A stretch of 64,000 nt of DNA from the NCBI GenBank assembly GCA_028278335.1, contig JANQEN010000192.1:30881-94880 (forward strand), in the 5' to 3' direction. Positions 4,079 to 62,000 of the stretch are shown piece after piece (the stretch's first letter is position 1; each line of letters opens with the position of its first letter). This DNA is from Chitinivibrionales bacterium (GTDB lineage Bacteria > Fibrobacterota > Chitinivibrionia > Chitinivibrionales > JANQEN01). The position numbers were made by a program, and so were the translations under genes. The notes under the pieces are model-generated. The model saw only the letters and a list, made by a program, of their open reading frames with translations, was not told the DNA's origin and ran no database searches.

Positions 4079-5095
4079 TTAGTCACGCTCTGGTTTAGAT
4101 TCTCGACGCATAAGATCCTTTAAAGCTTCAATAGGAGACTTATCCTCATAGAGAGCTTTGTATATTTCAGTAGTAATAGGCATGTCGATATTATACTTTT
4201 GTGCAAGGTTGTAGACTGATTTTGTGGTAGCAACTCCTTCTGCTACCATAGTCATTTTATTGAGAGCCTCATCCATGGTGAGGCCTGAGGCGATCAATTC
4301 ACCCATTCTCCTGTTTCGACTATGTTGACTGATACAGGTAGTGATTAAGTCCCCGAATCCAGCAAGACCGCTGAAGGTCATCTCCTCTGCGCCCATGGCT
4401 CGACCCAGTCGACACATCTCTACCATACCACGTGTTAAAAGCGCTCCCTTTGTATTATCCCCAAATCCAAGTCCATCGCAGATGCCCGCAGCTAAGGCGA
4501 TGACATTTTTTACACTAGCTGATAATTCTACACCTACCACATCATTATTTGTATAAATCCTGAAACTGTCTGTTGAAAACTGATTTTGAATTTCAACAGC
4601 AAGTTCATTGTTTTGTGAAGCGGCGACAACGGTGGTTGGGATACCGCGAGATACCTCTTCTGCATGGGAAGGGCCCGAAAGAACAACCTGTTTACTTGAA
4701 TCAACCACAGAAAGTTCTTGGGTTACAACTTCGGTTAATAAGCTTAAGCTGGAACATTCGATGCCCTTGGAGGCTAAAATCCATCCTTTGATTGCTGCGA
4801 TAGAATTTTGGTCAACAACTTCGTTAATGGTCTTCATAGTAGCACGCACAGTTTGTGCTGGTACAACAACAAGGATGTAATCTGAAGATAAAATCGGAAC
4901 AGTAATGTCACTGGTAATGGTTATAGATTCTGGAATAGTAATACCGGGGAGCTTAGTTGGATGCTCGCGTCTCTCACTAAGCATCTGAGCATCCTCTTGA
5001 TTAAACTCCCAAAGAGAAATAGAATGATTTCTTTTTTCAAGCAGAACTGCAAGAGCTATAGCCCAGCTTCCTGCTCCCAAAATACCAATATTCAT
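4079..5095 (-). CDS. gpsA: NAD(P)H-dependent glycerol-3-phosphate dehydrogenase
   Basis: GAGSWA Rossmann motif, SKGIE, LSGPSHAEEV, KNVIALAAG, GDLITTC-S-HSRN; lies downstream of der. Confidence 0.95.
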   Translation of the reverse strand: MNIGILGAGSWAIALAVLLEKRNHSISLWEFNQEDAQMLSERREHPTKLPGITIPESITITSDITVPILSSDYILVVVPAQTVRATMKTINEVVDQNSIAAIKGWILASKGIECSSLSLLTEVVTQELSVVDSSKQVVLSGPSHAEEVSRGIPTTVVAASQNNELAVEIQNQFSTDSFRIYTNNDVVGVELSASVKNVIALAAGICDGLGFGDNTKGALLTRGMVEMCRLGRAMGAEEMTFSGLAGFGDLITTCISQHSRNRRMGELIASGLTMDEALNKMTMVAEGVATTKSVYNLAQKYNIDMPITTEIYKALYEDKSPIEALKDLMRRESKPERD

Positions 5096-6478
5096 TTATA
5101 GCTCCTTTTCAGAAGAGGAATCGTCAGTCTCTTCTTTATGTTGTCCTGGAACACCTGCTGGCTTAAAAGTGAGAATTACCGGGCATCCTGAGAAATCATA
5201 CTCCGCCTGGATTTTATTTCTCAAAAACCGTTGATAGGCTGGAGTTATCATTTCCGGGTTAGAACAGAACAGATTAAATTGGGGGTACTCAATTTTTTGC
5301 TGCTTAATTCCTAAAAATCGAACCTGTTTACTCGAGATGTAGGGGTGAGGGTGTTGACGGGTCCACGTAAAAAGATTTTCCCGTAATTGAGCGGGTTTGA
5401 TACGTTTTTCCATTCGTTCTAATACACCAAAGGCTGTGTCAAGCACCTGAGGCACTCTCTGGCCTGTCAGGGCAGAAATGGAGATCATTGGGACATACTG
5501 TAGTTCCATATATGTTTTTTTTGTCTCTGCAACCAATGTGTCAAAGGTTTTATGATCCTTTTCAACCAAGTCCCACTTATTCCAGCAGATGATAATACCC
5601 TTGCGTTGCTTATTGATATGAGCAATTATTTTTAAATCCTGCTCACCAACTTTTCGATCAGTGTCAATCAGAAGGACGCATACATTGGCCCTTTTTACTG
5701 ATCCCAAGGCACGTAAGTTTGAGTAATATTCAATGTCATCATTGACCTGTGCTTTTCGTCTTAGACCTGCCGTATCAATGATACGGACCTTTTTTTTGTT
5801 ATACATGACAATACTGTCAATAGCATCACGGGTGGTTCCGGGGACATTGTCAACGATCATACGATCATCTTGAAGCACCTTATTTACAAAGGATGATTTA
5901 CCTGCATTGGGTCGGCCAATAACTGCCAAACTCAAATCAACCTCTTCATGAAAGGGCATTGTATCTGATTGATTTTCTTTTAATGTAGCACAAACATCAT
6001 CTAATAAATCACCAACACCTTTGCCATGCAGAGCAGAAATAAGTAAGGGATCACCACATCCCAGTGAGGTTAATTGATAAGCCTCATAGTCCAAAGAGGA
6101 GGATTCAGCTTTGTTCCCAGCAAGAATTACTTTGTTGTAACAGGTTTTCCGAAGACGCTGTGCAATAAGCAAATCAAGATCTGTTGGGCCTGCTTGTGCA
6201 TCAATAAGAAAAATAATTGCCGATGACTCGGCAAGTGCTGTGTCAACCTGTCGGTTTATCTCCTGGGGGATGCTCTCACGAGAGGTGGGTAGAAGACCAC
6301 CGGTGTCGACTATACAAAAGTCTATCCCATTCCATGATGTTTCCATGTAATTTCTGTCACGAGTTACACCGGGGGTGTCGTTGACCACAGCAATTCTACG
6401 GTGAAGAATTCTGTTAAAAAGAGAGGACTTCCCAACATTGGGTCTTCCAACAATAGATACGATTGGCAGGCGAGCCAA
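5096..6478 (-). CDS. der: Ribosome biogenesis GTPase Der (EngA)
   Basis: Two tandem G domains (GRPNVGKS/DTGG/NKAE and GRPNAGKS/DTAG/NKWD) plus KH-like tail; TTG start with AAGGAG SD. Confidence 0.95.
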   Translation of the reverse strand: MARLPIVSIVGRPNVGKSSLFNRILHRRIAVVNDTPGVTRDRNYMETSWNGIDFCIVDTGGLLPTSRESIPQEINRQVDTALAESSAIIFLIDAQAGPTDLDLLIAQRLRKTCYNKVILAGNKAESSSLDYEAYQLTSLGCGDPLLISALHGKGVGDLLDDVCATLKENQSDTMPFHEEVDLSLAVIGRPNAGKSSFVNKVLQDDRMIVDNVPGTTRDAIDSIVMYNKKKVRIIDTAGLRRKAQVNDDIEYYSNLRALGSVKRANVCVLLIDTDRKVGEQDLKIIAHINKQRKGIIICWNKWDLVEKDHKTFDTLVAETKKTYMELQYVPMISISALTGQRVPQVLDTAFGVLERMEKRIKPAQLRENLFTWTRQHPHPYISSKQVRFLGIKQQKIEYPQFNLFCSNPEMITPAYQRFLRNKIQAEYDFSGCPVILTFKPAGVPGQHKEETDDSSSEKEL

Positions 6479-26652: not shown

Positions 26653-28284
26653 TTAGAAGTCAAGCTCGATAAAGTCGTCTTCCTTAACCTCTTGAACAGG
26701 AGCCACACCTGTTCCTTCAAAGCCAAAGACCTGTGGGTGTTCATCAATGATCATAAGGGCGAGCATGCGAGGAATGTACTCATTGGTCTCTTCAGCTAAA
26801 TAGCCCATGCGATAGATGTACCAAAAATCGCGGTTACGCATGGGATCTTCGATTTTGCGTAGTGCACCTCGGACTCGTCCCTCTCCAGCGTTGTAGGCAG
26901 CCATAGCAAGCATGATCGAGCTTTTGCCTCCAAACTCGGCAATGAGATCCTTAAAATATTCAGCAGCGGCAAAGGTTGCCTTTCGAGGATTGCATCGCTC
27001 GTCAATGTTGTTATTTACCTTAAGGCCATATCGTCTACCGGTGGCTGGCATAAATTGCCAGAGTCCCCGTGCTCCAGCGTGGCTTAGGGCTTTTGGGTTG
27101 AATCCACTTTCCAGCATTGATATATAGGCTAACTCAAGGGGAAGCTTTTTATCCTGAAAAATTTCGCGAATCATCGGGAAGTATTGGTCTTTACGTTTAA
27201 GATAACGCCCAATGGTTCTTTTGAGTCGACCCGAGTAAATAGAAATGTGATATTTAACTCGTTCAGTCATTGTGGGGGGAATATGATAGTCGGTTTCACC
27301 AAATCGCTTCATGATTCCTGCGATATAGCGCTCTGTATCATCGGTGTAAAATTTTTCTACATCCTCTTCGTTAAGTTCTTCTTTTACGGTGGCCAATTGT
27401 TTTTTTGTTGATTCCAACTCTTTAATCAATTTTGCCAAAAGCAGTTTATTTGCCTCTGGGTCGGTATTGGCCTCAAAGATTTTTTGTTCATAGGAGTCAA
27501 GCTGGTCTTCTAAGCTCATACCTTTATTAAGAATCTGTTTATAGTGAAGCATCCGGACGGACAAGAAGGCGATAGTAATCAACGATAGTGCAGCAATCGA
27601 ACTGACAATCCAGATCCAACGCTTATGGCTCTTCTTCTTTGCTCCATAGGCACTGGCAAGAAGAGTAGATTGTGCCTCATTGAGATTGCCCCGATCAAGG
27701 ATTTTTTCTAGGCGCTTTTTATTTTTCATCAAGGAGTGCATGTCATCGGCTTGAATCCGATTGTCAACCAGCTTACGCTCGATGTCCATTGTCATAGAAG
27801 CGGCTGAACCAATAAAGGGATTGTCTTTTCTTGTGCCAGGGCCGGATGTCTTAATTGAATCAACCGTTGATGTGGTTGGTGGTTTTTTCGTTATAGAGGG
27901 GCCGCTATTTTCTAATGTGCGAGCACGGGTGTCTTCTCCAGGAATATTGTTGGTTGGAGCCATTAAGTCGAGTTGACTTTCTGAGACTACAAGAAGAAGT
28001 CTGGGACCCTTCATACCAAAACCAATGCTGTCACCCTTTACTACTTCATGCTCTTCAATCTTTATATCATTAAGATAGGTCCCATTGGTACTTTGCATGT
28101 CTTGAATGGAAATGGTATCCTCTGTTTTGTATACAATTGCATGATGACCAGACACGGTCTTTTCTGCAGAGTGAAGTGTTATGGTATTGGATGAGCTTCT
28201 GCCAATACTAATGGCACCATCCTTTAGAAGATAGCGTTTTCCCTTTTCAATTCCCCGGGTTATTTCAAGGTAGTAGTAAGACAT
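26653..28284 (-). CDS. Fusion of FHA domain, TM helix, coiled coil and MltD-type lytic transglycosylase
   Basis: FHA motifs IGR, VSGHHA, STNGT; TM WIWIVSSIAALSLITIAFLSV; SLT motifs MLESGFNP, GLWQFMPATG, AAYNAGEG. Confidence 0.88.
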   Translation of the reverse strand: MSYYYLEITRGIEKGKRYLLKDGAISIGRSSSNTITLHSAEKTVSGHHAIVYKTEDTISIQDMQSTNGTYLNDIKIEEHEVVKGDSIGFGMKGPRLLLVVSESQLDLMAPTNNIPGEDTRARTLENSGPSITKKPPTTSTVDSIKTSGPGTRKDNPFIGSAASMTMDIERKLVDNRIQADDMHSLMKNKKRLEKILDRGNLNEAQSTLLASAYGAKKKSHKRWIWIVSSIAALSLITIAFLSVRMLHYKQILNKGMSLEDQLDSYEQKIFEANTDPEANKLLLAKLIKELESTKKQLATVKEELNEEDVEKFYTDDTERYIAGIMKRFGETDYHIPPTMTERVKYHISIYSGRLKRTIGRYLKRKDQYFPMIREIFQDKKLPLELAYISMLESGFNPKALSHAGARGLWQFMPATGRRYGLKVNNNIDERCNPRKATFAAAEYFKDLIAEFGGKSSIMLAMAAYNAGEGRVRGALRKIEDPMRNRDFWYIYRMGYLAEETNEYIPRMLALMIIDEHPQVFGFEGTGVAPVQEVKEDDFIELDF

Positions 28285-28452: not shown

Positions 28453-29748
28453 TCAGGACGTGGTTGTTGAGGTGGTTAAATATTTCTGTCCAAAGGACCA
28501 CAAACAAAGTATTAAAAGAGCGTAAACATGATAGGTGGAATTCCAATAATAACGAAAAAGCATAAAGAGGGAGAGTTCTAAAATTATGCTTATGGTTGTG
28601 ATTGAAAGGCAAAAAAGTAGGGTAGAGAGTTGCCGCCATTTCCGAAATACGAATAGACATCCGGGAAAGAGAAGTAAGGTTGTTAGCCAGTTAATAATTG
28701 AGATGATCACTCCCTTTTTAATGTAGGTAGTGGAAATGATATCTAGAGTGGCTGTTGCCCAAAGCTCAACACCGGGAAAGGTTTTGGCTACCGGGGTGGT
28801 AAAAAAGCCAGTTGGTAGAGCACTGGGTGTGGTGATACCAACAAAAACTAACTTGTTTTGGAGCTGCTCCTGTGTAATACTATTAGAGAGAATATCTGCA
28901 GCTGAGAGAGTCGTTATTGTTCCTGGTTCTCCACGAAAGTTTAAGCGAAGAGAGCCTTGATTACGGATTAAGGGGATTTTTTTAGAACTGAGATGAACAG
29001 AGCCGTTACCATTTAAGACTAAATCTTCCTTTTTCATATTAAGAAAAGATGCAGCAGCAGCAAGTGCAAAGGAGGGATAAAACTCATTGCCTGCTCGTAA
29101 TACATGGACCAATTCTCGGACCGTTCTGTTGGACTCATGGATTGAGACATTAAGAAATCCTGCATGAGTTGCGTGTTTGGCGATTAAGGGATCTCCAAAT
29201 TCCACTTTCTTTGCAGCATAGGAAAAATTCTTAAAGATTGTCTCACTATTTTTTTTCTCCTTAAAACGATACTCATAGGCAAGAGGCGCAACCAACGCAG
29301 TTGGTGCTGCATGGTCGGTAACTTTTTCAAAGTGCATACCCATGACACATTGGTTGATCGATTCTAAGGTTTTTCGTAAGCTATCACTTCCAGGATCATC
29401 AACACGGGGAGGGAACACAAAATTTAGCGCAATAACAGCAGGGTCTGCATCATTGATTTGTTTGATCAATTGGGCAAAGACTTCCCGTGGCCAGGGAAAC
29501 TCACCAATCTCTTTTATAGCCTTTGAATCAATTCCAACAATAACAATTTCATTTGGGGTCGTGGATTTGATAAACTTGAATTTGTAGTCATAAAAATAGT
29601 TTTCTATGGTTGGAAAGGCTGTGCGAACAACAAAAAGAAGGCAGTAAAAGAGCGTTGTTATGGTGGTGAGGATAATTAGCTGTTTTATGTTGTTCATTGG
29701 TTTTGTCATGTTTAACTCACATTGTGTTAGTATATCATATAATACCAT
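28453..29748 (-). CDS. CHASE2-domain membrane sensor with no cytoplasmic output domain
   Basis: IVIVGID...GEFPWPR...NKLVFVG...PGVEL CHASE2 motifs; N-terminal TM and three C-terminal TMs, then stop; the true start may be 29709. Confidence 0.82.
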   Translation of the reverse strand: MVLYDILTQCELNMTKPMNNIKQLIILTTITTLFYCLLFVVRTAFPTIENYFYDYKFKFIKSTTPNEIVIVGIDSKAIKEIGEFPWPREVFAQLIKQINDADPAVIALNFVFPPRVDDPGSDSLRKTLESINQCVMGMHFEKVTDHAAPTALVAPLAYEYRFKEKKNSETIFKNFSYAAKKVEFGDPLIAKHATHAGFLNVSIHESNRTVRELVHVLRAGNEFYPSFALAAAASFLNMKKEDLVLNGNGSVHLSSKKIPLIRNQGSLRLNFRGEPGTITTLSAADILSNSITQEQLQNKLVFVGITTPSALPTGFFTTPVAKTFPGVELWATATLDIISTTYIKKGVIISIINWLTTLLLFPGCLFVFRKWRQLSTLLFCLSITTISIILELSLFMLFRYYWNSTYHVYALLILCLWSFGQKYLTTSTTTS

Positions 29749-39182: not shown

Positions 39183-39454
39183 GTTTTCCTCCAAAAAATT
39201 GAGTAAATAAGTATATATAAATAATGTTATTCTCTAAAAAAACAAGGTTAAAAATATCAATCGCTAACGGTTAAAGAAAAGGTTTTTATATTTTTCTTTT
39301 TCTTAAGCACTTTGTATATTGTATCTTGCCAGCTCTATTATATATCAAAAGGCTTATCAAGACCACCTATTTTTTCCTGTAAAAGACCTAAATTTATATA
39401 TATATCCTCAACTGTTGAAATCGAAGTTTTTACAATATATACTTTAATGTGCCT

Positions 39455-41374
39455 ATGAAACGCGACGGTCTGGCCTTAATAATTCACCCCTATAAAAATG
39501 TACTTCTCAAGAAAGACAAACTGCGGAAGTATCTTGATCAGTTTGCTCACGACCTAATTCAGGTTGTCACGGAGCATCCAAATTTTCGTGCCAATTTGAC
39601 ATTGCCAGGATATCTACTTCAGCACCTTGATCCTATTTTACTTTCCCGCCTCAACGATATTCGAAAAGAGAAGTGTTTAGAGTGGTTGACTCCCGGATAC
39701 ACAGAACCACTTATTAGCTTTTCTCCTCTTTGGCTCTCAAAGGAAAATATTACTCAGGGCATTAAAACTTTTGACGAGATCACCGGATGTAAACCGTGGG
39801 GATATATGCCCTCCTTTTCAAACTGGGAACCTTCGCTTATTGAACCACTTAGAAACAATGGTATACACTATACAATACTGTCACGGTCAGTGTTACAAGA
39901 AGAATCTCGGAACTACTGTGGCTATTGGATTACTGAGCAGGCCGGGCATACTATGATAGTTATACCATCCTATGATTTTCATTTTCATAATGCACCAGCA
40001 CAGATCCAAGACTGGATGGATAACATGGTAGAGGAGTCGATTAATACATCTCAATCAAAGATGGTAGTACTTCATTACCTCTGCCCGCTGGTTTCTGAAC
40101 GTAGTAAAGATGCCTTTCGTTGGATTCACTCCTTTGCAGAATCATTGGACACTCTGCTTATAAAATATCAGATGACCCTCTTAAGTGAGCTCATCACGCT
40201 TACGACGCCACTGGGATTGCAATCAATTCGTCCCAGTTTTCTTTTTAAATATAAGAGTGAAAAACCAGAGCAACATGATTCTAATCTTCTCTATGCCTTT
40301 GATTCCTTAGGAATTTTACAGCGTAAGATGGTCGATGTGGCAAGTAATATCTGTTCACATGAGCAGGAACAGGGTAAAGAATTGCAGTCTGTCAAAGAAC
40401 AACTATACCTTGCCCAAGATTGTAATCGTTACCTGCCCAATAAACAAAGTGGCTTTGAATTTATAAAAGATCGTATGTACACCTTTAGCAAGATGGTTGC
40501 TATTGAGCGGGAACTCCTCAAAAAGGACAAAATTCGCGGTGGCCAAATTCGTATTGCTGACTTCCTTAAGAATGGCTCTAAAAGCATCATCATGTCAAAT
40601 CGAAGCTTTAAGATCTATATTGACCATAAGAATGGTGGCCAGATCTTCGAGCTTGACTATCGGCTACGATCAGTAAATCTCTTTTCAGGGTACAACCCCA
40701 CATCACACAAGCCACCACGAATTATTGTTGCCGGAGATTCCTGTACCTCTTTCATTGATTATTTCCTAAAAGAGGATTGTCAACGAGCTGAGTTTTTAGG
40801 AAATCCAGAAAACCAGATCGGTGATTTTTACAATGGTCAGTTTGAGTATAAGATCAAGAAAACCAGTACCAGTGTTAAGGCGGTTATGACGCGACAAGGA
40901 TCAATTCGATCTGGAGATAAACTATTTCCGCTCAATATAGAAAAAGTGTTTGGTTTAGAAAAGGATAAGCCAGAACTCACCTTTGGGTATCAACTGGCAA
41001 ATCACTCCTTGACAGACTATACAGTAAAATTTGCTGTCCGACTTAACTTTTCTCTTCCAGGGGCCTCATCTCAGCAAGCTGCCTTGGTGTGTAATGATAT
41101 CGTATATGATAAATTAGTCCGTGAGCGATTGACTCTTGAGAATATCCGTGAGTTTTCATTGCGGGATCACAAGATCGGCACAGAAATTCAGTTCGTTATC
41201 CAAAAGCCAGTAACGCTTTGGAGTTATCCCATATCACAATTGGGACGGTATCAAGGGACAAGCATTATAATAACCACACCGGTTTCGTTGCCAGAAAACT
41301 CCGCATGGTCTCTGTTGGGAAGAATGATTTGTAAAAAGATAAGACTGCGAGGTTCTTTTACCGATGTTATCTGA
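39455..41374 (+). CDS. GH57 4-alpha-glucanotransferase-like protein with C-terminal DUF1926-type domain; catalytic motifs degenerate
   Basis: Colinear with GH57 glucanotransferases (HPNFRANLTLPGYLL, GYTEPLI, WEPSLIEPLRNNGIHY, YWITEQAG, DFLKNG...NGGQIFELD), but HxHQP, WLxE and DDGEKFG are missing. Confidence 0.75.
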   Translation: MKRDGLALIIHPYKNVLLKKDKLRKYLDQFAHDLIQVVTEHPNFRANLTLPGYLLQHLDPILLSRLNDIRKEKCLEWLTPGYTEPLISFSPLWLSKENITQGIKTFDEITGCKPWGYMPSFSNWEPSLIEPLRNNGIHYTILSRSVLQEESRNYCGYWITEQAGHTMIVIPSYDFHFHNAPAQIQDWMDNMVEESINTSQSKMVVLHYLCPLVSERSKDAFRWIHSFAESLDTLLIKYQMTLLSELITLTTPLGLQSIRPSFLFKYKSEKPEQHDSNLLYAFDSLGILQRKMVDVASNICSHEQEQGKELQSVKEQLYLAQDCNRYLPNKQSGFEFIKDRMYTFSKMVAIERELLKKDKIRGGQIRIADFLKNGSKSIIMSNRSFKIYIDHKNGGQIFELDYRLRSVNLFSGYNPTSHKPPRIIVAGDSCTSFIDYFLKEDCQRAEFLGNPENQIGDFYNGQFEYKIKKTSTSVKAVMTRQGSIRSGDKLFPLNIEKVFGLEKDKPELTFGYQLANHSLTDYTVKFAVRLNFSLPGASSQQAALVCNDIVYDKLVRERLTLENIREFSLRDHKIGTEIQFVIQKPVTLWSYPISQLGRYQGTSIIITTPVSLPENSAWSLLGRMICKKIRLRGSFTDVI

Positions 41375-41984
41375 AGCTCTCGATATAATAATTGAAAGCC
41401 GTGGCCATACTATTTGGCTTTTTTTCCAAGGCCCTTTTAATAAAGAACAAATACCCAATATCCGAAGAAAGCTCGAGGATTTTATTCGTGATGGGAATCG
41501 AGAGTTTGTCATTGATCTTGAAAAAGTGAGCACTATCCATGAATCGGTTGCTCCAATGTTTTTAAACTTGCTTAATTTTATTAAGGGTAAGGAAGGAAAC
41601 ATTAAACTCATTTTCAAGAATGAAATGGTCAGTAAGGCATTTTTACCCTATAAGAACATTTTTCAGATCTATACTGATGCAAAAAGTCTCTCCTCGGGGG
41701 GCTTTTTTCAGAGATTATTGCGTCAAGGCAACTTCCTAGCTAAAAAAACCGGTATTAGAGTTTCTGTTCCTGTGGCTATAATTTTTCTTGTTATTCTTAC
41801 TGGGTGGTTTATATCCTTGGGAATAATTATTAATATGCAGAAAGAGCAGATTGAAGAGCAGGAAGCAGAACTTCGAGATTATGAGCAATGGAAACAGGTC
41901 ACCGAGATTGAAATTGAAGATTTAAAAAGTCGGCTAAAACCAATGATCCAGTTGGGACTTGTACCAGATTCGTTGTCACAATAA
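41364..41984 (+). CDS. STAS domain, TM helix and periplasmic coiled-coil protein
   Basis: STAS-like FVIDLEKVSTI...GNIKL; TM VPVAIIFLVILTGWFISLGIII; heptad C-terminus; overlaps the upstream gene by 11 nt. Confidence 0.75.
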   Translation: MLSEALDIIIESRGHTIWLFFQGPFNKEQIPNIRRKLEDFIRDGNREFVIDLEKVSTIHESVAPMFLNLLNFIKGKEGNIKLIFKNEMVSKAFLPYKNIFQIYTDAKSLSSGGFFQRLLRQGNFLAKKTGIRVSVPVAIIFLVILTGWFISLGIIINMQKEQIEEQEAELRDYEQWKQVTEIEIEDLKSRLKPMIQLGLVPDSLSQ

Positions 41985-41992
41985 GGTTTCTC

Positions 41993-42751
41993 ATGAGAAC
42001 CCGTCGTATATCCCGTCATTTTGGCATTATTCTTCGTAAGAACCATCTTTGGTTCTCTGAACTGTTAGGTGTCGGACTTGTTGTGGTAATCATCTCGATT
42101 TTACTAGTTCAGGGAACAATGGTACTTATCAACTATACTCAAATGAAGAAAAATGGCCGACTGATTTCTGAATCGAAAGCTGGCTATATCACAAAATCTC
42201 ATCAATTACAGGAGTTAAAAAATCGTCAGAAGATTGCCGCTGTTTTAAATAGCTTCACCCGAAACAGACTCTCCAAGGATGTGCTTTGGAATCTTGTTGA
42301 TTTAGTCTATACAAATAGTAAATCCTTTGGCTATGATCCCTTTTTGGTATTAGCTGTTATTCATGTTGAAAGTCTGTTTAACCCCCGTGCGAAAGGACAA
42401 TATCGGGATGGACGCTATAGCGGTGCCTTTGGGCTCATGCAATTGAAATTAGGGACTGCTAAAGAGGTTGGGGCACCGTTGGGGATTACTATTACTAAAA
42501 AAGAAGACCTTTTTAACCCTGAGATAAATATTCCCCTAGGGCTTGCTTACTTGACAAAACAGATATCTTACTTTAAGAGCCTCAAGCTTGGTATATCAGC
42601 CTACAATCAGGGACCAGGGGTGATATTAAACACAATTAAGAATAAAACACCACTTTCTATTCGATATTATAATAAAGTTCTGACAAGTTATTTTAAGCTA
42701 AAAAGAATAAACACTGAGTCGTTATTAAAGAGCTCTCAAGATAAAAAATAA
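41993..42751 (+). CDS. Membrane-anchored lytic transglycosylase (SLT domain)
   Basis: N-terminal TM; LAVIHVESLFNP (catalytic Glu), GAFGLMQL and AYNQGPG. Confidence 0.88.
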   Translation: MRTRRISRHFGIILRKNHLWFSELLGVGLVVVIISILLVQGTMVLINYTQMKKNGRLISESKAGYITKSHQLQELKNRQKIAAVLNSFTRNRLSKDVLWNLVDLVYTNSKSFGYDPFLVLAVIHVESLFNPRAKGQYRDGRYSGAFGLMQLKLGTAKEVGAPLGITITKKEDLFNPEINIPLGLAYLTKQISYFKSLKLGISAYNQGPGVILNTIKNKTPLSIRYYNKVLTSYFKLKRINTESLLKSSQDKK

Positions 42752-49023: not shown

Positions 49024-49707
49024 ATGGTTACACAACTGGATATTCAATTTAAAAAAGTACACGAAGAGATTGAACAGGCTTGTCAGCGAGTTGCGCGTGA
49101 TCCTGGGTCAGTTCGTCTTATTACGGTAACTAAAACATGGCCCGCAGAGGTACTGCAAGCTGTTGTGGATAGCAATCATCCCGACATTGGAGAGAATCGG
49201 GTACAAGAAATTATTGAAAAGGTTCCCAAGCTTTCTGACAATAGAACGATTCATATGATTGGTCACCTCCAGTCGAATAAAGTATCAAAGGTTGTGCCCT
49301 TGGTTGATTGGATTCATTCGATAGATAGTGAAAAATTACTTTCCAAGGTAGACCACTATTGCAAAGTAATAAATAGACGGGTGAAGGTGTTGGTGCAGGT
49401 AAATACCTCCAATGAGACGGCAAAGTCAGGATGTGATCCTGTTGATGCGCCCTCTCTGTGTGAGAAAGCCTCACAGTGTGAGTACGTTGATTTTCGCGGG
49501 TTGATGACTATTGGACCCTGGACTACCAACCTTCAAGCAGTTCGAAACAGCTTTAAACAGCTTAAATCAATTGGAGAATGCTGTCAGCATCTTGTGCAGG
49601 GAAATTTCGAGCTTTCCATGGGCATGAGTGGAGATTTTGCTATGGCTATTGAAGAGGGTGCAACCATGATCCGCGTTGGTTCGCGTATTCTTGGGGAGCG
49701 TTATTAA
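49024..49707 (+). CDS. yggS: Pyridoxal phosphate homeostasis protein (YggS family)
   Basis: VTK, GENRVQE, HMIGHLQSNK, LSMGMSGDF and GATMIRVGS motifs. Confidence 0.93.
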   Translation: MVTQLDIQFKKVHEEIEQACQRVARDPGSVRLITVTKTWPAEVLQAVVDSNHPDIGENRVQEIIEKVPKLSDNRTIHMIGHLQSNKVSKVVPLVDWIHSIDSEKLLSKVDHYCKVINRRVKVLVQVNTSNETAKSGCDPVDAPSLCEKASQCEYVDFRGLMTIGPWTTNLQAVRNSFKQLKSIGECCQHLVQGNFELSMGMSGDFAMAIEEGATMIRVGSRILGERY

Positions 49708-49708
49708 A

Positions 49709-49960
49709 ATGCAACTTTTATTTATCCTTTTAAGAATTTTTGAAGTTATTCTGGTGATTCGAATTGTCATGTCCTGGTTTCGCCCTGACCCAACACATCC
49801 AATTGTCAATTTTATTTATCGGGTGACCGATCCTGTGCTTGAGCCGGTTCGGCGTTTGCTCCCTATCCAGGCAATGGGGTTTGATCTTTCACCAATCGTA
49901 ATTTTTGTAGCTATTAATATGATAAAACGGTTCTTAATTCGTTCAATGTTTCTGTACTAA
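49709..49960 (+). CDS. yggT: YggT family membrane protein
   Basis: RIVMSW...TDPVLEPVRRLLP...DLSPI; ATG at 49709. Confidence 0.9.
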   Translation: MQLLFILLRIFEVILVIRIVMSWFRPDPTHPIVNFIYRVTDPVLEPVRRLLPIQAMGFDLSPIVIFVAINMIKRFLIRSMFLY

Positions 49961-49987
49961 GATGCATAAAGGAAAAGGAGTATTGCC

Positions 49988-50542
49988 ATGCGTATTACCC
50001 CTCTTGATATTAGAAAACAACCCTTTAAAAAGGTCCTCCGCGGCTTTGACAAAGATGCGGTTAATAGCTTTTTAGAGATGGTGGCAAATGAGTATGAGAA
50101 GATTATTAAGCAGAATGATGAATTTGCCACAAAGGTTAAGGTGTTGCAGGGACGTATCGAGGAGTACGAGAAAATTGAGCGTACTTTGAGCGAAACATTG
50201 CTTACTGCACAGCGAGCAACTGACGAAGCCCGTTTAAATGCTCAGAAAGAGGCAGAGCTTATTATTAAAGATGCGCAAATTCGTTCGGATAAATATGAGG
50301 ATCAGAGTAGACAAAATGTTAACAGGTTGGAAGGTGAGCTCAATTCACTCAAGATTCAACGAGATAGTTTTTTAGCCAGGTTTCAATCGATGCTGCGGGA
50401 CCAACTCTCTCTGGTGGAGATTATTTCTGATAGCATCAAGGATGAGAAGAGTAGTGTGAAGACAACAAAGCCTGCTTTTGCAAAAAAGAGCTTTCATCCA
50501 ACAGAAACTATGGACGAGGTGCCCCCACAACCGCTTGTGTAG
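49988..50542 (+). CDS. divIVA: DivIVA family protein
   Basis: ITPLDIRKQPFKKVLRGFDKDAVNSFLE N-domain followed by a coiled coil. Confidence 0.9.
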   Translation: MRITPLDIRKQPFKKVLRGFDKDAVNSFLEMVANEYEKIIKQNDEFATKVKVLQGRIEEYEKIERTLSETLLTAQRATDEARLNAQKEAELIIKDAQIRSDKYEDQSRQNVNRLEGELNSLKIQRDSFLARFQSMLRDQLSLVEIISDSIKDEKSSVKTTKPAFAKKSFHPTETMDEVPPQPLV

Positions 50543-60343: not shown

Positions 60344-61147
60344 ATGATGACGCCACTCTTTACCGGACCGGGTAGATTATTCTGGGGAGTGGTAGATACA
60401 GTATGTCTTTTTTTACGACACGTTACCTATATCTCTGATTTAACCTGGAAAACCTGTTGCCGCGTTCATCTTCTTTTTAAAAACATTAATCTTACACTTC
60501 ACCAAATGTTTGTTATAGGTGTGGAATCACTCCCTTTGGTTGTAGTTACTTCCATTTTTGTGGGTGGGGAGACTGTTGTGCAAGCGAATTTTCTCTTTGC
60601 AGGCATGGTTCCATTACGATATTTAGGATACGCGGTGAGCAAATCCTTGGTTACAGAACTCTGTCCCGTTATAACCAGCTTTGTTGTGGCAAGTCGCATT
60701 GCAACAGCCATTGCAGCAGAAGTTGGTTCGATGAAGACCAGTGAACAACTTGATGCCATGACCTGTTTGAGTTTAGATTCGATTCGATACCTTATCGTAC
60801 CCAAGGTTGTGGCCAGTGTAATCATGATTCCCGTATTGGTAATATTTTCTGAATTGTTAGCTTTTGCAGCATCGGTGATCACAGCAATTTTATTTGTAGA
60901 TATTACCATGCATCAATATCTCTCTGGCTTAAGGCTCTTTTTCTCAGTACCCCATATGATGATCGGCATTTCAAAGACAACAGTCTTTGGAGCGATTATC
61001 GCTTTTACCGGGGCTCACTTTGGCTTTCAAGCTCGAAAGGGTGCGCAAGGTGTGGGAGAGGCAACGACACGAGCTGTCATGGCCTCTATGGTATTGATCT
61101 TATTTTTTGACTTTCTTATGGCCTTTTTAACCTTACGAAGTATTTAG
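60344..61147 (+). CDS. mlaE: MlaE family ABC transporter permease
   Basis: EL-PVIT, AAEVGSMKTSEQLDAM and GAQGVGEATT motifs. Confidence 0.88.
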   Translation: MMTPLFTGPGRLFWGVVDTVCLFLRHVTYISDLTWKTCCRVHLLFKNINLTLHQMFVIGVESLPLVVVTSIFVGGETVVQANFLFAGMVPLRYLGYAVSKSLVTELCPVITSFVVASRIATAIAAEVGSMKTSEQLDAMTCLSLDSIRYLIVPKVVASVIMIPVLVIFSELLAFAASVITAILFVDITMHQYLSGLRLFFSVPHMMIGISKTTVFGAIIAFTGAHFGFQARKGAQGVGEATTRAVMASMVLILFFDFLMAFLTLRSI

Positions 61148-61160
61148 CAGGAATTGACTC

Positions 61161-62000
61161 ATGCTAAAAATCGAACACCTAAAAAAACATTTTGGTTCTA
61201 AAGTTGTTTTACGAGATGTAAACCTTAATGTTGATAAGGGAGAGGTGGTTGCCATTATTGGTCAGTCGGGCCATGGGAAGAGTGTGATTTTAAAAAATAT
61301 CATGGGACTGATGCTACCCGATGGCGGTAGAATACTCTTCGATAATGAGATTATTTCTTCACCCACAAAAAAAAGCAGTGACTTTGAAAAGGTTCGTAAG
61401 CGATTTGGCATGCTTTTTCAAGGAGCTGCGCTATTTGACTCAATGACTGTCGGGGAAAATATCGCTTTTCCGCTTAGAGAACATACTACCGAGCCCGAAG
61501 AGTCGATTAATAAAACGGTAGCCAATGTATTAGAAATGGTTGGGCTTCGGGGTATCGAAAATGTTATGCCAGCAGAGCTTTCCGGTGGTATGCGCAGCAG
61601 GGTTGGGCTTGCTCGAGCTATAGCCATGGAACCAGAAGTTATGCTTTACGATGAGCCGACCTCGGCCCTTGATCCGATTATGTCCGATAAAATCAATGAC
61701 CTCATCATCGACTTGCGGGAAAAGCTAAAGATGACTTCCATTGTGGTGACTCACGATATGGCATCGGCCTATAAAATTGCCGATAAAATTGCTATGCTCC
61801 ATGATGGAAAAATAATTTTTCACGGAACTCCTGCAGAGATCCGTGCCTCGCGAAATCCCTACATTCAACAATTTATTAGAGGTCAAAGAAAACTCTACTA
61901 TGCTGTAAAGGATGAGGAGTCATATGAGAAAACCTTTGACCTTAATAAAATTCGCACTGGATCAGTTCAACCTAAAAAAAGAGGTAAATTCGACTTTTAA
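61161..62000 (+). CDS. mlaF: MlaF family ABC transporter ATP-binding protein
   Basis: GQSGHGKS, FQGAALFDS, LSGGM, YDEPT and VTHD motifs. Confidence 0.9.
   Translation: MLKIEHLKKHFGSKVVLRDVNLNVDKGEVVAIIGQSGHGKSVILKNIMGLMLPDGGRILFDNEIISSPTKKSSDFEKVRKRFGMLFQGAALFDSMTVGENIAFPLREHTTEPEESINKTVANVLEMVGLRGIENVMPAELSGGMRSRVGLARAIAMEPEVMLYDEPTSALDPIMSDKINDLIIDLREKLKMTSIVVTHDMASAYKIADKIAMLHDGKIIFHGTPAEIRASRNPYIQQFIRGQRKLYYAVKDEESYEKTFDLNKIRTGSVQPKKRGKFDF

Follow-up and report, generated by a model that had tools for sequence, protein, structure and literature searches.

What would join a cytoplasmic protein of a glucan-processing enzyme family, itself lacking catalytic residues, to a membrane-anchored enzyme that cuts the cell wall? 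The question is raised by three adjacent genes in the stretch of DNA analysed here (the window: 64,000 nucleotides (nt) of a Chitinivibrionales bacterium, phylum Fibrobacterota, assembly GCA_028278335.1, contig JANQEN010000192.1, positions 30,881 to 94,880). Gene 1 encodes a protein of GH57 type, gene 2 a STAS domain followed by a transmembrane (TM) segment and a helix, and gene 3 a TM-anchored SLT domain (Table 1). A first-pass annotation of the window had put them forward as a candidate new system. We conclude that the trio is a real, phylum-specific and undescribed module, with a putative function. To our knowledge, the way in which bacterial lytic transglycosylases are restrained and directed is largely unknown and few regulators have been described. 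A phylum-wide module in which a STAS anchor ties an enzyme of this kind to a cytoplasmic protein would, if true, represent a new control route, whereas a conserved operon of unrelated functions would be of little interest.

Three genes in a constant order across Fibrobacterota

We searched 201 Fibrobacterota genomes for gene 1, keeping the best 30 loci (the window's own locus included), and ran a profile of gene 2 over the same genomes; tallies over this set include one unpublished genome (G194, of family f15) and concern related genomes that are not independent. The proteins closest to gene 1 carry names that assign them to metagenome-assembled genomes of Chitinivibrionales, Chitinispirillaceae or Fibrobacter. 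Of the 30 best loci, 28 carry the trio in order, and the two others (L007 and L029) end at contig edges. Full-length gene 2 matches also adjoin distant gene 1 homologues in Fibrobacter-type families: all eight distant loci of this type that were fetched carry the trio, with gene 1 identities of 18-25%, and so do both loci of a GC-rich clade, from Fibrobacterota and Fibrobacteria records, that were reached through divergent relatives of gene 2. In total, 38 of 40 loci have these three genes in an unchanged order, the remaining two being cut by contig ends, which argues that the arrangement is more than chance. The synteny across genomes on which the first-pass annotation had staked its proposal is thus found.

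The three genes are also translationally coupled, with stop/start overlaps or very short gaps in the window and in most loci. In the window, genes 1 and 2 share 11 nt (41364-41374), and a gap of 8 nt (41985-41992) lies between genes 2 and 3; the coordinates of the open reading frames (ORFs) agree with the tight coupling, and with the divergence from ppdK, that had been noted at first pass.

Genes 1 and 2 are lost together. Among the 81 genomes of the window's order, 13 lack a gene 1 match, and a full-length gene 2 was found in none of these 13. Family f10 has gene 1 in 76 and gene 2 in all of its 78 genomes. No gene 2 was found in the 22 genomes of family f15, where the gene 1 matches are weak, N-terminal and to proteins of about 700 amino acids (aa) or more; these we presume to be other GH57 proteins.

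When compared with 1.84 billion representatives, the gene 2 profile retrieved 26 proteins at E <= 1e-30 and full-length matches down to E = 2.7e-26, below which there were fragments and generic STAS proteins alone. In the ESM Atlas, the commonest phylum of the cluster nearest to gene 2 is Fibrobacterota. Because the gene 2 family is confined to this phylum in these searches (setting aside a few divergent representatives that were left unplaced, e.g., P0151, of 289 aa, and P0147), we take the family, and hence the trio, to be specific to Fibrobacterota within the reach of the searches.

Catalytic residues and selection in gene 1

Gene 1 matches Glyco_hydro_57 (PF03065; E = 3e-9, residues 8-143, above the cut-off) and PF09095 (E = 3.1e-26). 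It has neither a TM nor a signal-like segment, its maximum 19-residue Kyte-Doolittle mean being 1.07, so that its description as a GH57-type protein without a signal peptide holds. Its AlphaFold2 (AF2) model, with a predicted local distance difference test score (pLDDT) of 82.5, shows a (beta/alpha)7 barrel followed by a helical bundle, with the PF09095 beta-sandwich at the C-terminal end, and the top Foldseek match of this model is 1k1x_A, over the whole chain (E = 2.3e-33, TM-score 0.72, 16% identity). The Thermococcus litoralis 4-alpha-glucanotransferase (4AGT; 1K1W/1K1X) therefore shares with gene 1 its whole-chain fold and the PF09095 domain, but it differs in the catalytic positions: it has the nucleophile Glu123 and the motifs HDDGEKFG and HQP. 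In gene 1, Phe121 stands opposite Glu123 (the E of WLTERV in 1K1W), an assignment on which phmmer and a 29-sequence family profile agree; the proton-donor motif HDDGEKFG is missing and the HQP of conserved sequence region (CSR) 1 is shortened to HP. The residue numbers of 1K1W are taken from alignment coordinates, and the equivalence of the CSRs follows published work (PMC6037648; this and the other papers cited are drawn on for their accessible parts). The proton-donor position is His207 in the window, in a column that holds D, H, Q, K, R or E across the window's clade. This call is less firm than that on the Glu, given that two HMMER alignments are out of register near CSR-4 and no residue-level superposition lies behind the assignment. 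Of the features of an active GH57 enzyme, gene 1 has the barrel and the helical bundle but neither the nucleophile Glu nor the proton-donor Asp.

The first-pass annotation had called gene 1 catalytically dead, and this is correct for the window's clade but not for the family as a whole. In a 36-row phylum alignment, the nucleophile column holds Phe or Tyr in all 26 rows of the window's clade; elsewhere it holds Ser, Tyr or Met (Fibrobacter-type rows), His (L035) or Glu (L041 and L042). The last two loci, together with proteins P0271-P0298, make up the GC-rich sister clade (Fibrobacterota; GC 61-65%), in whose 29 rows the nucleophile is Glu in 13 and Gly in 16, with the CSR-4 Asp present in all 29. 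Since the Glu is found in some GC-rich members and is gone elsewhere while the operon is intact, we infer that the nucleophile was lost several times independently, and this repeated loss within an intact operon suggests a conserved role that does not depend on catalysis.

Gene 1 is nonetheless far from neutral evolution, as the first-pass proposal requires: the ratio of nonsynonymous to synonymous substitution rates (dN/dS) is 0.042-0.131 in the 9 pairs, out of 10, that have a finite dS. Most pairs are saturated, and the least saturated ones give 0.066 (dS 0.18) and 0.086 (dS 0.62). These low values indicate that the protein is maintained by purifying selection. One gene 1 match, at G157:C3:5600-7248 in an 81%-complete genome, contains stop codons (2 TGA, 1 TAG and 3 TAA) and is a possible pseudogene.

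Proteins of this kind have been classified before. The '4AGT-like proteins' of Martinovicova & Janecek (2018; PMC6037648) comprise 63 GH57 sequences, all bacterial and around 620 aa long, in which one or both catalytic residues are missing; a 618-aa entry from F. succinogenes S85 appears in Table S1 of that paper, and most other members are from spirochaetes, Treponema pallidum included. The CSR strings of the S85 entry (QMSPS, GVLEFL, FNSSLV, LLDIPSEPTE and PAMAPLYFR) recur in the gene 1 orthologue of L034. With its 639 aa, the T. litoralis 4AGT as nearest relative in the PDB, and neither catalytic residue, gene 1 belongs to this group as defined. The group was established by sequence classification, and the accessible part of the publication mentions no function and no STAS or transglycosylase neighbour (PMC6037648). 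A literature search found neither the trio nor a GH57-STAS pairing in print. The first-pass statement that no system of this composition had been described therefore stands for the trio and needs qualifying for its first component: the dead GH57 group is already known, while this search found in print neither the trio nor its conservation throughout the phylum, the repeated loss of catalysis in it or the GH57-STAS interface that is predicted here. A GH57 gene of F. succinogenes, Fisuc_0668, has a tRNA isopentenyltransferase and hypothetical proteins as neighbours according to the accessible supplement of PMC6204037, and these do not mark it as a gene of the trio.

Gene 1 might still be a metabolic enzyme, acting on or binding cytoplasmic alpha-glucan (glycogen or maltodextrin) by means of other residues, with the STAS domain doing nothing but localise it and the transglycosylase being a co-transcribed housekeeping protein. 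It retains CSR-2 (LEW, E76) and parts of CSR-1 and CSR-5, and both Glu and Asp occur in 13 of the 29 GC-rich rows. The genome encodes a GT35 glucan phosphorylase, 22 of the 40 loci have ppdK, a gene of central carbon metabolism, as divergent neighbour, and heavy glycogen turnover has been reported for Fibrobacter (PMC6204037, accessible part). Yet the retaining mechanism of GH57 cannot operate with Phe, Ser or Gly in the place of the nucleophile (PMC6037648), and the proton-donor column is free in the window's clade. The presence of gene 3 in order in nearly every locus, often with a stop/start overlap, is hard to explain without a functional tie. We regard a tethered enzyme as unlikely. A catalytically intact GH57 elsewhere in the genome, which the first-pass annotation had suggested looking for, was not found in the 90%-complete assembly, and neither was a GH77. 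The sole other PF03065 match (23 bits) is a 260-aa ORF resembling NodB-type deacetylases, which we rejected as a second GH57 candidate.

Predicted and possible contacts among the three products

Gene 2 is recognised by the Pfam STAS profile (E = 3.2e-5, 24.1 bits against a cut-off of 22.6). The STAS domain (about residues 1-110) is followed by a flexible linker and a KKTGIRxS motif. Next come a TM segment (about 135-158), with a charge of +4 ahead of it in the hydropathy analysis, and a periplasmic helix that extends to about residue 196 and ends in a conserved P-L-x-Q-L-G motif. The AF2 model (pLDDT 81) shows the STAS domain, a low-confidence linker (114-128) and a single helix (135-196). The first-pass reading of a STAS domain, a TM and an external coiled coil is thus upheld for the first two elements, the coiled coil being visible solely as this modelled helix. 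Conserved throughout the phylum are the KKTGIRxS motif before the TM, G147-W148 within it, Q159, and P193...L197-G198 at the C-terminal end.

The N-terminal tail of gene 3 is basic (+6) and bears the conserved motif W-x-S-E; it leads into a TM segment (about 23-48), which is followed by a helical stalk and then by the SLT domain (Pfam, E = 3.5e-23, residues 108-223). The intact catalytic Glu seen at first pass, E126 (VIHVES), is present in every one of 24 aligned orthologues, and in the same sequences E126-S127, G147-L-M-Q150 and A203-Y-N-x-G-P208 are invariant or nearly so. From these residues, gene 3 is an active-looking family-1 (SLT) lytic transglycosylase. The hydropathy profiles of genes 2 and 3 fit a topology with the N-terminus inside, which would make the STAS domain cytoplasmic and the SLT domain periplasmic. 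In L034 (about 4547-5268; genome G086, one contig), gene 3 has a frameshift inside the SLT domain, 3' of GLMQ, as a result of either an assembly error or real pseudogenisation.

The best NCBIfam match of gene 3 is NF047373 (BB0259-type), with E = 2.5e-13 and 49.7 bits against a cut-off of 234, and the SLT part alone aligns. Borrelia BB0259 (LTaseBb) has the same SLT domain with ES, GLMQ and AYNAG motifs, but it is described in the accessible part of PMC8517470 as a 717-aa lipoprotein with a long periplasmic N-domain that works with FlgJ, whereas gene 3 has 252 aa and is anchored by an N-terminal TM. Both the score, far under the cut-off, and the differing published architecture led us to reject gene 3 as a flagellar transglycosylase of BB0259 type.

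The contact between gene 1 and the STAS domain, proposed at first pass, received backing from a controlled structure prediction. We modelled gene 1 with residues 1-132 of gene 2, from alignments of 36 rows each in the same genome order, together with three controls. The interaction prediction score from aligned errors (ipSAE) was 0.77, 0.75 and 0.74, against 0.00 for the best control; at least 89% of the contacts were common between runs, and the partner pLDDT was at least 79. The mark set for ipSAE had been reached by 116 of 157 solved complexes and by 2 of 215 mismatched pairs in its calibration, counts that hold roughly for the present pair because custom alignments were used. In the predicted complex, the edge strand 'GGQIRIxD' at the start of the C-terminal beta-sandwich of gene 1 pairs with strand beta-1 'LDIxIE' of the STAS domain. 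The interface would comprise residues 359-369, 374-376 and 466-472 of gene 1 (the first strands of the C-terminal sandwich) and residues 4, 7-15, 17, 22, 36, 39-40, 43 and 45 of gene 2 (strand beta-1 and helix alpha-1). It includes D369 and G374 of gene 1 and D7 and E11 of gene 2, all near-invariant across the phylum, and mean column conservation is higher in the interface than in the remaining columns for gene 1 (0.57 versus 0.48, permutation p 0.03) and for gene 2 (0.64 versus 0.57, p 0.10). We know of no solved GH57-STAS complex, so that recall by the model is unlikely. On the strength of these predictions, gene 1 probably binds the STAS domain of gene 2.

The same evidence bears on whether the products need to touch at all. 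They could work separately, their order being kept by descent within the phylum, and the fact that all loci come from a single phylum, and are hence not independent, counts in favour of such a scenario. The order has nevertheless survived the divergence of gene 1 to 15-25% identity while flanking genes changed, genes 1 and 2 have been lost jointly, and the gene 1-STAS prediction passes with all controls at 0.00. We therefore give conserved order without physical association a small probability.

Genes 2 and 3 resemble each other in their membrane parts. In a profile-profile comparison, the juxtamembrane motif, the TM and the helix of the two fall into register along 70 columns (probability 96%, E = 2.8e-9, score 54.2). 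Reversed columns scored 19.6 and the best of 20 column shuffles 28.9. An FtsB family built as a control from 29 genomes of the window's order matched gene 3 at 55% over 28 columns, and the real match is longer and stronger than every control. This resemblance hints that gene 2 may pair with gene 3 through matched TM/helix modules. Gene 2 was also considered as the FtsB/DivIC of the organism and rejected: it scores 13.7 bits with PF04977 (cut-off 28.9), and a canonical FtsB (80.4 bits) is encoded elsewhere in the genome.

The proposed relay and the surroundings of the trio

Gene order, coupling, purifying selection and the loss of catalytic residues are established by computation; beside them we place a tentative mechanism. 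The three products would form a single module centred on the inner membrane and specific to Fibrobacterota. Gene 1, having lost its nucleophile in the window's clade, would be kept for a non-catalytic role, with the STAS domain of gene 2 retaining it at the membrane. Gene 2 would span the membrane once and reach into the periplasm with a helix of about 45 residues, where gene 3 would pair with it through the matching juxtamembrane, TM and helix module. The place or activity of peptidoglycan cleavage would then depend on the cytoplasmic gene 1/STAS assembly. Taken as a whole, we give this relay slightly less than an even chance, and the control of the transglycosylase, the ligand of gene 1, be it alpha-glucan or another, and any tie to carbon storage or to division are speculative. 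A more specific version, which would make the trio a previously unrecognised kind of trans-membrane regulator, seems doubtful to us: that the pseudoenzyme, derived from a glycogen enzyme, would signal conditions in the cytoplasm (the load of alpha-glucan, or some other ligand of the retained cleft) through the STAS-TM-coiled-coil adaptor to the transglycosylase, and so couple carbon status to peptidoglycan remodelling across the phylum.

Several points weigh against the relay. The gene 1-STAS score is the model's own confidence, obtained from shallow alignments of 36 rows. The FtsB control family matches the gene 2 module with a probability of 87.7% (E = 3.4e-6, 39 columns), and the sizeable scores of the controls imply that a composition of TM plus helix inflates such matches. 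Gene 3 is defective in some loci, with a frameshift in L034 and L017, an in-frame stop in L028, a masked run in L011 and a cut at the contig end in L008; these may be assembly errors, but they allow for a dispensable transglycosylase. As the genome has eight SLT-domain genes, gene 3 may also be redundant. Finally, the GC-rich members that have both Glu and Asp may still be enzymes, in which case a purely non-catalytic role would not be general.

Precedents exist for the logic of the relay. In FtsEX-EnvC-amidase and similar systems, wall hydrolases in the periplasm are controlled from the cytoplasm, and an inactive enzyme homologue acts as regulator. Like them, the trio would join a cytoplasmic component to a hydrolase by way of an adaptor that spans the membrane and has a periplasmic coiled coil, with a dead homologue as regulator. 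It differs in having neither an ABC transporter nor a LytM protein, in its dead enzyme being cytoplasmic and from a glucan-enzyme family, and in its hydrolase being a membrane-anchored lytic transglycosylase, so that the resemblance is one of logic and not of membership.

The window itself encodes another lytic transglycosylase that has a signalling domain on the cytoplasmic side. This 542-aa protein (26653-28284, minus strand) has an FHA domain at its N-terminus (E = 8.9e-15) and an SLT domain at its C-terminus (E = 9.1e-27), with a TM at about 222-242 and a helical stretch between them; the gene after it (28453-29748, minus strand) has a CHASE2 domain. Its layout is that of genes 2 and 3 combined, with FHA in place of STAS, on a single polypeptide and with no GH57-like partner gene. 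By analogy, this union of a cytoplasmic signalling domain and a periplasmic SLT domain may be counted in favour of the relay.

If true, the relay would give GH57 homologues that have lost catalysis, so far known from sequence classification alone, a role in docking or sensing. The more specific version would also be the first functional clue for the dead 4AGT-like proteins, which spirochaetes have kept too, among them Treponema pallidum with its reduced genome. Cultured Fibrobacter is an organism in which the idea is testable.

Table 1. Position of the trio and of its divergent neighbour in the window.
Feature	Position	Strand	Evidence
Gene 1, GH57-like/PF09095 protein, 639 aa from ATG	39455..41374 (alternative start 39449)	+	ORF, Pfam
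Gene 2, STAS-TM-helix bitopic protein, 206 aa	41364..41984	+	ORF, Pfam, AF2 model
Gene 3, TM-helix-SLT lytic transglycosylase, 252 aa	41993..42751	+	ORF, Pfam, hydropathy
ppdK (pyruvate phosphate dikinase), 909 aa	36465..39194	-	ORF; divergent from trio
AT-rich intergenic region between ppdK and gene 1, 260 nt	39195..39454	.	

The gene neighbourhood beyond the trio varies, whereas the trio itself is conserved. Some of these neighbours suggest another function, that of an accessory to an envelope machine, in which gene 3 would open the peptidoglycan for a TolC-like, Mla- or Lpt-type bridge and genes 1 and 2 would position it. Lytic transglycosylases specialised for flagella or secretion systems are well established as a class, with BB0259 (PMC8517470) as an example. 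In the Fibrobacter-type loci L033 (6756-8700), L034 (2512-4494) and L040 (6953-8891), the trio is directly followed by a gene for a TolC-like OEP protein and an MlaC gene; L038 has ORFs matching these in size and position (a call made on these two features alone), L037 has an OEP gene nearby, and in L035 the trio is followed by an alpha/beta hydrolase gene and, two genes downstream of the trio, by an LptA/LptC-like gene. The window encodes an MlaE permease and an MlaF-like ABC ATPase (60344-61997, plus strand, the ATPase at 61161-61997), which adjoin dnaB at a distance of 18 kb from the trio, and no MlaB-type STAS gene was seen beside this pair. Against such an accessory stand the other loci: after a gap of 275 nt, the window continues 3' of the trio with the biotin operon bioB, bioF, bioC, bioD and bioA, asparaginase-like and TPM-domain genes follow in L041 and L042, and the next gene in L036 has no Pfam match. 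The accessory function would also leave the cytoplasmic GH57-like protein without a role. We hold it to be improbable.

Structural neighbours of the STAS domain suggest one more function. As in RsbV/SpoIIAA and MlaB, the STAS fold of gene 2 would serve as a protein-docking domain; it differs from theirs in being fused to a TM and a periplasmic helix, in the unconserved phospho-Ser and in its predicted partner, a GH57-like protein bound through beta-1/alpha-1. The model is nearest to RsbV/SpoIIAA (Foldseek TMt 0.83-0.87, E ~3e-7) and weaker against MlaB (TMt 0.63-0.65), the STAS subunit of MlaFEDB, which is soluble and binds the MlaF ATPase, whereas gene 2 is membrane-anchored. That gene 2 would act in partner switching, as an RsbV/SpoIIAA-type antagonist of a kinase or anti-sigma factor with gene 1 as alternative partner, is very unlikely in spite of this likeness and of a match to NCBIfam ant_ant_sig (E = 3.2e-4), since that score of 20.6 is far under the cut-off of 53.45, the column of the phosphorylatable Ser or Thr at the start of helix 3 is variable (S/T/A/G/E/P/Q in the window's clade, Y in Fibrobacter-type rows), and kinase, phosphatase and sigma genes are absent from the operon in the loci inspected, a search limited to the operon and not covering the rest of the genome.

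On the other side of the trio, the 22 loci with ppdK upstream on the opposite strand include the distant L040 and L042 (tblastn). Divergent ppdK is a conserved neighbour across distant classes of the phylum, which does not imply that it belongs to the module. A sigma-70-like site at 39415-39443 agrees with the consensus in 10 of 12 positions and is the single such site between ppdK and the trio, a call based on the consensus match alone. The scan for promoters and terminators performed at about chance level (17 promoter-like sites versus 12.7 expected, and 4 terminator-like sites versus 2.9 expected). Further downstream, 6-8 kb from the trio, lie genes for a YggS-like protein that binds pyridoxal phosphate and for DivIVA (49024-50542, plus strand).

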